A stretch of 64,000 bases of DNA from an uncultured Fibrobacterota bacterium (GTDB lineage Bacteria; Fibrobacterota; Chitinivibrionia; Chitinivibrionales; FEN-1185). Positions 27,001 through 30,000 of the stretch are shown piece by piece. Positions within the stretch are counted from its first letter, which is position 1. Every line of letters starts with the position of its first letter. The stretch covers positions 229,839 through 293,838 of the forward strand of contig CAVWBU010000021.1 of assembly GCA_963753345.1 (NCBI GenBank), in the 5' to 3' direction. Made by a program: the position numbers.

Positions 27001-30000
27001 GATTGGTTCGAGTATACCTATGGTTACAATACTCTTCAATTCGGCGGCAACACTACCCAGGTGGATCTCTTCGGCTTCCCCTATGTCGCAATAGTCAGAC
27101 AGGACGCCGGCAACGGCGTCACAAACAGTTTTCTTGACAGCTGCGGCATCAACATTCCAAGGGACCAGATCATTCAAAATTTTCATGACAGCATGTCGGC
27201 GCCCTTTCAGGGCTGCATAAGGCCGTGCCGCGTGGTCGCGCCGCGTTCGTCGAGCCAATTCGGCACGGGCGGCGCATACGTGAATTACCTGAAGCCCTAT
27301 CTCGATTCGCTCTGGACGTTGTGGAAAACGGCCCCGCTCAATTTCAGCAACGGCAACAATCACTATGTCGGCACGGTCAACGCCGCCGGAACCCTGGTGT
27401 TTACCGGCGCGGAGGCCGGATCCATGGCGGAACCAACCACGCAGATGGTCTGGGCCTGCGCAGGCTTTCCGGGGTATGTCGGGGCAGCGCTTTCCGCAGC
27501 CATGAACCGCGGCGTTGCCGGAAACGGCGCCGACTATTACGTCCCGTCGACCTACTACAACAGAAGCCCCTACATGAATGAATTTTCCAAGGTCCTGCAT
27601 GAAATCAGCATTCATCATCTTGCCTACGGCTTCGGCTACGACGACAACAACAACCAGAGTTCGGTGTTGATTGTGGGCAGTTCGAAGCCGCTTACGTCGC
27701 TTACCATCACTATTGAGCCGTTTGTATCAGCCCCTGTCGCCGCCGTTGTTCCGGAGAATAAACCCGCCGCTCACCGGCCCGCGCTCCGGTACTTGTCAAA
27801 TAGTCAGATCGCGCTCGGTAATGCAGGTCAGGTTGAAAATGTTTCGATTGTTGCATTGAATGGAAAGATTGTCGTGAAAAATGCGCTTGTAAACAACAAT
27901 GTGGTGAGTTTGAAAGGCCTGGCTGGCGGAACGTACTATGTACAGATAAAGGACAAAGCCGGGAATATTGCTTCGGCAATGGTGTTCAAGAGGTAACGCA
28001 TCAAGTACAACATGTGATTGGGTGGGGGAAGTTTCCCCCTAGGGTTCAGCCAACCGGCGTAATGTGGGGGGCGCATTCCAATACGCCCTTTTTATTTTAT
28101 GCGCCGGTTGTCTGAACCCATACCCCCTCGTGGGTAGCCCCCTAGAGAGTTGATTTGCGAGAAAGTTGCCTCAGCTGCGGGGGCACCGGGAAAGATCGTT
28201 GAAAAGTTGAATAGTTGAAATGTTGAAAAGTGGAAAATGCAAAGAAGAAGCGCTGACTTATTTGTTGTGGATACCGATTGGCGCGAGAAGAAGTAATTGA
28301 CCGAATAGAATTCCCTTGCCGCGCGTTAGGGGCGACTGGAGGTCCCGCCAAAGCGGGATGCCGCCCGGACCCGGCCGCTACCGCGGCATAGGGCCGAGGC
28401 GGCCCGAGGCCGGTGGCCGAGACCGGAAGGAGAACCGACCCGAGCGCAGCGAGGGGAACGCCCAGATCTTTAACTTGTCTTAGCAGCTAACAATTTGTCA
28501 ATCAGCGCAGGAAGCGGAATTAGAGAAATCGTGGTCTGCTGGTCCGACATCGCATAGGGCACGACAAGCATGTTGTTGTGAAGCAGCGCCCCGCACGTGT
28601 AAACAACGTTGGGAACATACCCCGACCTGCCGGCCTCAGTCCAACGGATGAGAGGCTCCTGTAAACGCCCGAGTATTTTTGCGGGATTCTCTTTGTCCAG
28701 AAGAACGGCGCTTATGGAATACTGACGGAACGGCCCGACGCCGTGGGTGACAAGGAGCCAGCCGGCGTCGGTCTCAATTGGCGAGCCGCAGTTTCCGATC
28801 TGCACGAATTCCCATGGATACGAAGGCTTCATGAGCGGTATGGATTCGTGCCAGAAATGAATGTTGTCGGAGTACATGAGAAAAAGGTTCTCGTTGTCCT
28901 GACGTGATATCATGGCGTACAGGCCGTTTATCCTGCGGGGAAACAGGGCCATTCCCTTGTTGACGGCCGCATTCCCGTTAAGGGTGATCATCTTGAAATG
29001 CTCGAAATTCTCCGTTTCCATCACCTGCGGGAGAATCGCCTTGCCGTCATAGGCGGTGTAGGTGGCGTAGTATTTTTTGCTTCCGTCCTTGTCGGTGAAA
29101 AGAACAAAGCGCGCGTCTTCAATGCCGTTCTGCTCGCTGGGAGAGAGTGGGAACAGGACCCGTTCCGAAAGAGAAACTGAAGGATCGAAGCGCGCCTCAT
29201 AATTGCACCGGGCCAGCCACAGGATTTTGTCGCTGGTGAGCCGGTCGTCCGGGGACACGGGCTTATGGTTGAAGACATATGATTTTACTTTTTCCGCAAG
29301 ATTGTCAAACGTGAATTCATCCGCCAGCGAGCCGATAATCGATCTTGAGAAATCGTTGTAGATATCCATTTCACGGAGTTTCAGGGCAAAACAGGTCTTA
29401 TCATAAAGAGTGTTTGTCTTCATTTCCGCGGGAGAGGCAAAGCCGCGGGGCGCGTCAATGGTTATGGCATGATTCGCGTCGATGCATCCGCTGCGGAATG
29501 TCAACGATGAGATATGGCCTTCGCCGGTCGCCCGCAGGCTCAGGATAAAACGGAGGGAACCCTCGGCCAGTCCCGACTGGTCGGGGTGAGGAACTATTGA
29601 CGGATTGAAAAGCGCAGCGGATTCGAATGAATATTCGGCCAGAAAGAACGAGCCGATGAGAAGCCTTCGTTCCGGCGAAGGCGGTATGTCGGAAGGCATA
29701 TAACGGCGGACAAAATCGAATTGGCGCTCCAGAAGAAGCTCAAAATTATGATGCCGATGTGAAAATTTGCCAAGTACATCCCTGAGTTCTTTCTGTACGT
29801 CGGCCTCTTCGAGCGACAGCACTCTCGAAATGATCCGTTCGACGCGGGACTCGTTGAAAGGAATATGCGGCCGTGCGATAATCCGCCGGCTGTCGTGCGT
29901 AAGGACAATGCCCGTGTCTTGTACGGGGACGGGCGAGGAATCACGGGAAGCATTTATTTTATTCATTCCGGTATCGGCTCCTTGAAACTTTCGATAACGT

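Follow-up and report, generated by a model that had tools for sequence, protein, structure and literature searches.

What is the element that fills a convergent spacer in the window analysed here, a stretch of 64,000 nucleotides from the genome of an uncultured Fibrobacterota bacterium (G000), and from what could its roughly five hundred relatives in that genome have arisen? As a rule, intergenic repeats in bacteria are plain palindromes or hairpins formed by inverted ends. What is unusual in this family is a five-helix module of ~150 nt that has conserved single-stranded motifs, is kept by compensatory changes throughout one order of the Fibrobacterota, is fixed beside the end of an IS1182-family transposon and has grown to 3% of a genome.

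The copy at 28011-28492 of the window is a full one, as first described, and it occupies the spacer between a GH64 gene (stop codon 27994-27996) and a convergent GH130-like gene (stop codon 28470-28472). Read on the + strand, it begins with a left flank (28011..28023, ending …TGATTGGGT) that is defined by its sequence and by a profile of the flanks of 132 full copies, in which the 20 bases preceding the first hairpin are A-rich with TTTGGT at their end. The left module, L, opens with hairpin a (28024..28039, + strand, GGGGG-AAGTTT-CCCCC), where a G-C pair is replaced by A-U through a double change in 7 of 51 aligned copies. Hairpin b (28040..28122, +) is long in the window copy, as indicated by the single-sequence fold (z = -5.1) and by the alignment, and its region shows the greatest length variation among copies. 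Helix c (28132..28187, +), the third of the module, is drawn from fold prediction and alignment; in it GGGTAGCCCCC … GGGGGCACC are arranged around a smaller hairpin, and its 11 pairs have 89.1% of cells paired. There follow a tandem array of five GTTGAAAA units (28198..28237, +; Tandem Repeats Finder), which is also seen in other window copies, and a conserved centre with no predicted fold (28238..28322, +; HMM consensus) that runs up to the start of the right module. This module, R (28323..28464, +), is placed by pair counts and by a match of covariance model R1 at 28311-28466 (137.4 bits). It comprises ~150 nt and five helices: P1, formed in the window copy by GCGTT (28323-28327) with AACGC (28457-28461, then CCA), encloses H1 (28342-28359), H2 (28360-28403), H3 (28408-28418) and H4 (28439-28455), all on the + strand. 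The short tail 3' of R (GATCTTTAAC, 28465..28474, +) shares bases with the convergent gene's stop codon and is similar to the first bases of the insertion sequence (IS)-type tail GATCTTCTCTTGA considered below.

A recount of the family in the window's genome, for which the preliminary description had given 509 copies (198 full, 198 R-only, 91 L-only and 22 middle; 164 kb), yields 503 merged loci from 538 nhmmer matches: 173 with both L and R, 211 R-only, 93 L-only and 26 other. Together they cover 144,065 bp of 4,516,072 (3.2%), and eleven of them lie inside the window. The blastn search yielded 482 HSPs, the nhmmer search 409 matches in its first round and 538 in its second. The median pairwise identity of R alone (3000 random pairs, 345 copies) is 0.70, very near the earlier 0.694 for the copies. 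The statement that copies lie only between genes also stands: with the home-made gene calls of this 94% complete MAG, 459 of the 503 loci overlap no confident ORF and the remaining 44 touch ORF ends only. The description of the repeats as an intergenic, non-coding family of modular build, in which two folds are conserved, is supported.

The two folds are not equally secure. The R structure was written by hand from the window copy because the automatic consensus folds were poor or misaligned; MAFFT with RNAalifold gave a poor consensus on 345 R copies, and RNAalifold on another alignment returned only 16 pairs, since H2 was misaligned. Across 128 copies, the 38 pairs of this structure have 85.9% of their cells paired, compared with 71.2% after shuffling (0 of 500 shuffles as high) and 34-45% when the fold is slid along the alignment. 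Both sides have changed in 31 of the 38 pairs, a covariation count that, like the others given here, is inflated by inheritance within subfamilies. These values bear out the previous claim of 42 pairs with 90.0% against 78.1%, and compensatory changes have preserved the R fold both within the genome and across genera. For L, the paired fraction reported before (33 pairs, 88.5%) is reproduced with 26 pairs (88.7% versus 82.6% shuffled, 0 of 500), but double changes occur in 11 pairs only, a number equalled in 25 of 500 shuffles; the L fold is more weakly supported than the R fold. In R, G-U cells outnumber A-C cells by 240 to 53, 175 of the G-U cells stemming from two pairs, and H4 contains tandem G-A pairs; judged from these sequence features, the strand in sense orientation to the transposase introduced below is, tentatively, the one that would fold. 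By eye, pairing of a 5' segment of R (AGGCAG and similar) to the 5' strand of H2 is a possible alternative. Mutual information over all R columns mixes true pairs with subfamily signal and offers leads only, such as a possible 299-388 contact.

How widely is this fold distributed? Rfam 15 gives no match to it, as had been noted: the best score, 21.8 bits (E = 0.37), falls short of the gathering cut-off of 40, and seven loci from other genera give 0 matches at the gathering threshold. Nor did literature searches return any description of the repeat family, any account of Chitinivibrionales repeats or any mention of structured modules within IS1182 elements, in agreement with the preliminary statement that the element was not found in the papers then searched. 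Strong DNA matches occur in 4 of 5 other genomes of the same genus, again as reported. Contrary to the earlier reading, the family is not confined to this genus. With the covariance model, R homologues turn up in 23 of the order's 81 genomes, representing 14 of 33 genera, and in 2 of 55 genomes from another family of the phylum. The matches outside the genus (18 of 75 order genomes) do have the weak scores that had been noticed earlier, but they have the conserved motifs and the fold in common; all of these wider searches employed R1, a model built from this genus that gives distant members too low a score. The R fold is therefore an order-wide family.

The origin of R is suggested by its neighbours. 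A full-length insertion sequence carrying R was found in another genus (genome G057), and the window's genus and genome yielded remnants only. The G057 element consists of a 16-nt inverted repeat (GAGGCTGTCTCAAAAC), a 469-aa ORF, R (beginning 6 nt past the transposase stop codon), ~45 nt and the inverted repeat reversed; as read in the alignment, GAGGCTGTCTCAAAAC lies on the left and its reverse complement CAGACTGTCTCAAAAC on the right, and AACA is present on either side. The ORF scores 347.5 bits with NCBIfam NF033551 (IS1182 family transposase, cut-off 270), and Pfam DDE_Tnp_1_6 and DDE_Tnp_1 match a truncated copy of the transposase. A second G057 copy, 87-88% identical and also R-bearing, sits inside the palindrome AAGAGGG-AACA…AACA-CCCTCTT. 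In G004, from the window's genus, the order is a similar inverted repeat, a reversed R, ~110 nt, the deleted transposase and R; here the transposase of the R-linked clade is a remnant only, in which an internal deletion has joined the N-terminal 20 aa to the C-terminal portion. In the window's genome itself, 22 of the 29 CTGTCTCAAA occurrences belong to an ordered series of R, a tail of 13 nt, the inverted repeat, NNN and CTTCCCCC, and 20 codons left over from the C-terminus of the transposase (VCTIYNLRKIW…; C35:97955-98040) lie directly upstream of a same-strand R. In 22 other copies, the IS-type inverted repeat is bordered on its outer side by the same 8 bases (GGGGGAAG) with which L hairpin a of the window copy begins. 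Finally, one of ten metagenome loci with an IS-type end has a 37-aa transposase remnant (51% identity), also directly upstream of R.

In related genomes, then, R directly follows an IS1182-type transposase gene, and the family is therefore most likely a swarm of transposon leftovers; we consider it probable, though well short of certain, that its members are MITE-like, non-autonomous and derived from an insertion sequence of the IS1182 family. The means of spread, which had been left entirely open, is narrowed to this extent: in G057, R occupies the stretch from the transposase gene to the right inverted repeat, and remnants of that transposase as well as its inverted repeat adjoin R copies in the window's genus and genome. 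The association is seen in five places only, in two genera, and no transposase was found in 6 loci around the R of G129, G122, G018 and G033. Neither the window's genome, nor the four other repeat-bearing genomes of the genus, nor the ten metagenome loci yielded an intact transposase from the R-linked clade, and the single IS1182-family gene of the window's genome (C26:283227-284774) has different inverted repeats and no R. The common centre of the 503 elements yields no transposase remnant below E = 0.3, and L is not present in the intact G057 copy. The majority of R copies, those of the GGGGAACGCCCA type (239 of 390 ends in a regular-expression count), have no inverted-repeat tail. A second terminal R fragment downstream of the R end was seen by eye in 4 of the first 40 ends; the regular-expression count gave 3 of 246, which is not valid, since it missed the GGCGCCCA type, left 144 of 390 ends unclassified and for that reason found no inverted-repeat tails. 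It is also conceivable that R elements inserted secondarily beside the transposase gene.

If the family did descend from such an insertion sequence, the native place of R would be the interval from the transposase stop codon to the right inverted repeat, on the transposase sense strand, and in the commonest derivative, which runs from L through the GTTGAAAA array and the centre to R, L would represent the opposite end. The head-to-head R dimers have the look of derivatives composed of two R-bearing ends. There are 28 such pairs with R-sized inverted arms in the window's genome, and the arrangement recurs in G033 and in most of the ten metagenome loci. The dimer at 12098..12540 of the window (no strand assigned) joins R(-) at 12125-12270 to R(+) at 12369-12520, and its left arm keeps the IS-type inverted repeat (…GGGGGAAGATCAGCCTGTCTCAAAAC…) outside R; as the two arms belong to different subfamilies, a search at seed 9 detects no inverted repeat in this dimer.

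The insertion sites are in keeping with an unusual mode of entry. No target duplication was found in those 132 of the 173 full copies with both ends located, where the longest direct word common to the two flanks averages 4.92, compared with 4.84 for mismatched flanks. Copies accumulate at gene ends, 139 of 479 placed copies (29%) lying in convergent spacers, which make up 389 of the 2,886 spacers genome-wide (13.5%). According to the excerpted text of PMC4923244, the transposase of IS1272, of the IS1182 family, inserts into hairpins, which are often terminators, makes no duplication and removes part of the target. By analogy, the pile-up at gene ends fits a hairpin-targeted, duplication-free insertion of this type (PMC4923244, excerpt): in both cases an IS1182-family transposase is concerned, which in our family stands beside R, our copies lie at gene ends without duplications and are mosaic or truncated, and one IS copy sits in a palindrome. 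Unlike our family, IS1272 / TnSha1 has no structured module between transposase and inverted repeat, nor any high-copy derivatives, in what that excerpt describes. Spread by insertion into hairpins or terminators could thus have brought copies to gene ends, and the hairpin-rich copies would in turn have become targets, which could lead to truncated modules and to module swaps at fixed sites; this putative mechanism is carried over from a Staphylococcus element, which weakens the case.

Such swaps are observed. At the full copy 14107..14567 (+), the G001 orthologue has the same L and flanks and a different array, centre and R; at a second orthologous site in these two genomes, an R dimer corresponds to an L-array-centre from which R is deleted. 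The flanks at both sites are ~90-94% identical. The full copy at 25906..26422 (+), after an FtsX-type permease gene, has L and R in the window's genome and a reversed R in G005, and at the level of synteny no copy lies within 1.5 kb of this site in G002, G003 and G004. Module swapping at fixed sites can therefore reshape spacers between close strains, and the family offers a ready marker, as well as a cause of assembly breaks, in these genomes. The differences between nearest-neighbour R copies (102 pairs) have a median of 12% and are at least 5.9%, and no recent movement is therefore shown; in the window's genome the copies are of old date and a partner transposase is not seen.

Why, then, would such old copies keep their fold? 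Between nearest neighbours, paired sites differ less than unpaired ones (0.095 versus 0.166) and double changes number 191 versus 32 expected, the same direction as in the earlier figures (0.053 versus 0.153, and 261 versus 35). This pattern is one of several that could point to elements kept by the host in the manner of REP/BIME or ERIC, that is, structured RNA or DNA working at gene ends as, for example, a terminator, an insulator, an mRNA 3' stabiliser or a protein landing pad, a reading that would be compatible with a transposon origin. Consistent with it, the copies lie a median of 25-31 nt from neighbouring genes, they are more often co-oriented with the upstream gene than not (310 versus 169), and orthologous sites remain occupied despite their changed content. 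However, the nearest-neighbour contrast could also result from master-copy selection or gene conversion, and G003, a 99% complete genome of the same genus, has no copy, so that the family is dispensable. A consensus scan of the copies found 11 promoter-like sites (4.8 ± 2.5 in shuffled sequences) and 24 terminator-like sites (19.1 ± 4.2), none of them at a recurrent fixed place, which likewise speaks against a host-kept terminator or promoter. On balance we regard upkeep by the host as possible, if rather doubtful; were it true, the fold would represent a new, large family of structured regulators in a little-studied phylum.

For the preferred origin from an IS1182-family element, the inferred reason for fold upkeep is the weakest step. 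R might serve the transposase transcript as a structured 3' untranslated region; alternatively, it might be structured DNA beside the transposon end that the transposase machinery needs, and with either option multiplication would be limited to lineages that keep the fold. A stronger form of this idea, in which an IS1182-family DDE transposase requires R, either as an RNA cofactor from the 3' end of its transcript or as a folded single-stranded DNA end in hairpin-targeted, duplication-free insertion, with the 500 copies as decoys or substrates, strikes us as rather improbable. If it were correct, structure- or RNA-assisted transposition would extend to a DDE family without an earlier description of it; more generally, a fold that serves the transposon would raise the question of how hairpin-aiming IS1182-family enzymes use structured nucleic acid.

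R could also be a family of small-RNA genes, with a promoter in the centre and an end at the CCCA/U-rich tail, that spread in a SINE-like fashion and whose association with the transposase is incidental. The conserved unfolded centre always lies just upstream of R; the 3' end of R is sharp and followed by a T-rich stretch, and in R-only copies the 3' end is intact and the 5' end varies. Moreover, in R conserved single-stranded motifs are flanked by covarying helices, as is typical of a working RNA. Against this, searches for reverse transcriptase families gave no match in the window's genome, the consensus scan saw no recurrent sigma-70-like promoter in the centre (although it does not cover the promoter type of this phylum), and in G057 and G004 R lies 6-25 nt past the transposase ORF with no centre of the kind found in the window's genome. 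We think this origin has only a slim chance of being right.

Structured RNAs do accompany some transposons, such as the omega RNA of IS200/IS605 and the bridge RNA of IS110, which serve RuvC or DEDD enzymes. The covarying ~150-nt module at a fixed place beside an insertion sequence end is similar, but the enzyme here is a DDE transposase of the IS1182 family, and no guide-like variable loop of R matching a target or donor was identified. An IS200/IS605-type palindrome-associated element, with R as an omega-RNA-like scaffold and the guide in the flank, might be suggested by the sharp limit of R at the element boundary, the variable flank beyond it, the hairpin-rich ends, and the lack of target duplications and long terminal inverted repeats. 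It is nonetheless very improbable: the Y1 transposase (PF01797) and the TnpB zinc ribbon (PF07282) both have 0 matches in the window's genome (94% complete), the controls being positive in 6 of 14 known genomes for the former and in known genomes for the latter; no IS605- or HEARO-type family of Rfam matches; and the only protein seen beside R is the IS1182-family DDE transposase.

The family also invites comparison with known repeats. The REP/BIME sequences are palindromes of 20-40 nt mobilised by a Y1 (RAYT) enzyme. Like our copies, they are very abundant, GC-rich and folded, and form gene-end clusters, mosaics and inverted pairs; by contrast, no Y1 transposase was found here, and the units are multi-helix modules of ~150 nt. 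The BOX elements of Streptococcus pneumoniae are intergenic, have predicted folds and carry, between their left and right modules, a short unit repeated in tandem a variable number of times. By description, the only level at which we have compared them, they resemble the L-array-R build of the present family, but their modules are much shorter, and we know of no transposase link for them.

The closest counterparts of the swarm that we favour are the MITEs derived from DDE insertion sequences, for example the Correia elements of Neisseria and RUP of Streptococcus pneumoniae. The likeness lies in short, non-coding sequences with hundreds of intergenic copies, end sequences putatively in common with a full insertion sequence (seen intact here only in another genus), presence or absence between relatives and no transposase of their own. 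In contrast to MITEs, the repeat described here is long (~450 nt), has two covarying multi-helix modules in place of one inverted-end hairpin, has shown no clear terminal inverted repeats and no target duplications, and has modules that also occur alone. In the copies with both modules, the start of L and the end of R have, by eye, a short and imperfect inverted similarity that involves only the G-run and CCCCTCGCT.

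The repeat copy at positions 28011-28492 of the window lies inside a convergent spacer of 473 nt in an organism whose IF-2 relatives assign it to the Fibrobacterota, order Chitinivibrionales. Its left neighbour is a gene for a GH64 beta-1,3-glucanase that bears a T9SS sorting tail (26569-27996, + strand), and to its right is a GH130-like gene on the minus strand (stop codon at 28470-28472). The copy opens with the L module of three helices (28024-28187), followed by a tandem array of five GTTGAAAA units (28198-28237), a conserved centre that has no predicted fold and extends from the array to R, and finally the GC-rich R module (28323-28464), which ends in …GGGGAACGCCCA. 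Folded as single sequences, L on the given strand has z = -5.1 and R has z = -2.3. Elsewhere in the window (50798-50825), a convergent spacer holds a lone array of four AGTTGAA units, flanked by neither L nor R; it may be the final trace of a copy.

Across the window's genome (G000), blastn returned 482 HSPs, and two rounds of nhmmer gave 538 matches that cover 144,065 bp, or 3.2% of the 4.52 Mb. Merged, the latter make up 503 loci, 11 of them in the window: 173 with both L and R, 211 with R only, 93 with L only and 26 others. These figures are near the 509 copies of the preliminary description, whose observation of a modular, folded, intergenic repeat is confirmed as a whole. With genes called by a home-made codon-bias caller (80% of the genome called coding), 459 of the 503 loci overlap no confident ORF, while the remaining 44 touch ORF ends only, mostly over-long starts. 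Full copies are close to their neighbouring genes (median distances of 25 and 31 nt), and convergent spacers, which make up 13.5% of all spacers, harbor 29% of the 479 placed copies. Copy and upstream gene point the same way in 310 cases and opposite ways in 169. The GH64 gene is itself bracketed by full copies in the same orientation (25906-26422 and 28013-28488). In three other genomes of the genus (G002, G004 and G005) its left neighbour is syntenic and the GH64 gene is found on other contigs; recombination between copies may have moved it, or it may have travelled as a composite unit.

The structure of R was drawn from the window copy as a closing helix, P1, enclosing helices H1 to H4 (40 pairs, 38 of them in the covariance model, R1). 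The alignment comprises 128 copies, taken from the window and from another 20 stretches of G000 of 20 kb each. Within this genome 85.9% of the cells are paired, compared to 71.2% after shuffling (none of 500 shuffles reached the observed figure) and 34-45% with slid partners, and 31 of the 38 pairs have changed on both sides. In P1, for example, GCGUU/AACGC (82 and 87 copies at the two varying pairs) alternates with GCGCC/GGCGC (37 and 35). Among 102 nearest-neighbour pairs of copies (median distance 0.12, minimum 0.059), differences are rarer at paired than at unpaired sites (0.095 versus 0.166), and 191 double changes were observed where 32 were expected. In 31 sequences from across genera, fitted to the model and hence biased towards the structure, 85.6% of cells are paired versus 61.8% when shuffled, and both sides have changed in 35 of the 38 pairs; the slid controls speak for a real signal. 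With respect to the strand, the excess of G-U over A-C cells (240 versus 53, two pairs alone supplying 175 of the G-U cells) and the tandem G-A pairs in H4 lean towards the given one, not decisively. For L, 26 pairs emerged when single-sequence folds were put to a vote, with 88.7% of cells paired versus 82.6% shuffled (0 of 500 as high). Double changes are confined to 11 pairs, a number that 25 of 500 shuffles reach, so the L fold rests mostly on conservation.

The strong matches that had been placed within the genus are so placed by DNA similarity, in four of the five other same-genus genomes; by the same measure the fifth, G003 (99% complete), has no copy. At E ≤ 0.01, R1 matches 23 of the order's 81 genomes and 14 of its 33 genera (G000 counted), and 19 of 151 genomes in a sample of the phylum, including 2 of 55 of another family. 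Outside the genus, where scores are 27-63 bits, single-stranded motifs (GCGYYAGG, GGACnGGAG, CGAGGC…GCCGAG, CCGGA.GGAG, CCGACC and GGRRCGCCCA) are kept around helices of differing sequence, and L-like modules lie upstream of R in two further genera. Rfam had no match for the window copy or for seven loci from other genera, and our literature searches turned up no description of the R module or the repeat. R is a covarying structured unit that is order-wide and, by these searches, undescribed.

The repeat as a whole is best read as non-autonomous elements that form a large and old family and are related to an insertion sequence of the IS1182 family. In G057, from another family of the order, R lies downstream of an ORF resembling a transposase C-terminus. 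The second G057 copy has, in order, a 16-nt inverted repeat, a 469-aa ORF (347.5 bits to the NCBIfam 'IS1182 family transposase', cut-off 270), R beginning 6 nt past the stop codon, about 45 nt, and the reversed inverted repeat; AACA stands on both sides, within the palindrome AAGAGGG…CCCTCTT. This intact copy lacks L. In the first G057 copy an L-like module is fused to the gene's 3' half, followed by R and the repeat, and the genome G059 shows an L-like module, then an array of AGTTAAG, the last transposase codons, R and the repeat. Of the 18 loci in the order encoding relatives of the G057 transposase, R is present at three, two in G057 and one in G004, of the window's genus. The latter has a similar inverted repeat, a reversed R, about 110 nt, an internally deleted transposase gene (the N-terminal 20 aa joined to the C-terminal part) and R. 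As R is found next to a transposase at no more than five sites, spread over two genera, it may instead have inserted there secondarily. G002 also encodes five equally scoring 531-aa IS1182-like ORFs (L100, L109, L111, L113 and L114) with 31% identity to the G057 transposase and no R nearby. They represent another member of the family within the window's genus, one that looks active.

Traces consistent with an IS1182-related origin occur in G000 as well. Of the 29 occurrences of CTGTCTCAAA, 22 are in the context of R (GGCGCCCA type), a 13-nt tail, the inverted repeat, NNN and CTTCCCCC, and these include the left arm (12098-12270) of the R dimer in the window. At C35:97955-98040, a 20-codon remnant of a transposase C-terminus lies directly 5' of R. 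A metagenome scan for the IS-type end yielded ten loci, none with an intact transposase gene; one carries a 37-aa remnant at the corresponding place. The 8 bases outside the inverted repeat (GGGGGAAG), with the preceding TTTGGT, are also the start of L. The majority of R copies have no repeat tail, the common centre shows no coding remnant, and no intact transposase partner of R was found in the genus. The single intact IS1182-family element of G000 (L127, C26:283227-284774; AAC on both sides) has no R and other inverted repeats (GAGCCTGTAGAAAAAC…), partly related to the R-linked CAGCCTGTCTCAAAAC. For the rival mechanisms, IS200/IS605 with omega RNA, RAYT/REP and retro-copying, the enzymes are missing from G000 (94% complete).

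When the two flanks of a full copy are compared (132 copies), they have no more copy-specific words in common, direct or inverted, than mismatched controls, and no target duplication is detectable. Within the IS1182 family, IS1272 is reported to insert into hairpins, of which several are confirmed terminators, without duplication and with the target deleted in part, and some other members target palindromes (PMC4923244). Similar behavior of the repeat would account for its placement at gene ends, the missing duplications and the G057 copy in a palindrome, and also for the family's mosaic state, each copy being a bundle of hairpins and so an insertion target itself. Two orthologous sites in G000 and G001, with flanks about 90-94% identical, are such module mosaics: at one, L and flanks are shared and the array, centre and R differ; at the other, an R dimer in G000 stands against L, array and centre in G001, where R is missing from between the P1 strands. 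Such mosaics could equally arise by homologous recombination between copies. In G001:C520 (L115 220-730), R is excised exactly between the P1 strands (…GCCGCGCG|CGCGCCCA…), and L, array and centre remain. As to why the family would retain its folds, we infer three candidates: the transposase transcript may have a structured 3' UTR, the DNA at the transposon end may be structured, or the host may use the folds at gene ends. The chance that the fold takes part in transposition by a DDE enzyme is small but real.

Some minor features of the window should also be mentioned. Adjoining the R dimer (12098-12540) is a 128-aa ORF (11685-12071, + strand) with HTH_23 and HTH_28 matches and a weak match to the IS630-transposase N-terminus. 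A 39-nt tandem repeat (59554-59660; 2.7 copies, 80% matches) is unrelated to the repeat family. Arrays of 7-mers (ATTGTAG, complement TCTACAT/CAATCTA) occur at 1621-1713, 4538-4633, 6686-6720, 11450-11474 and 23758-23786; two sets fall within the R copies 1552-1778 and 4473-4728, which carry an insert of about 100 nt in place of helix H3.
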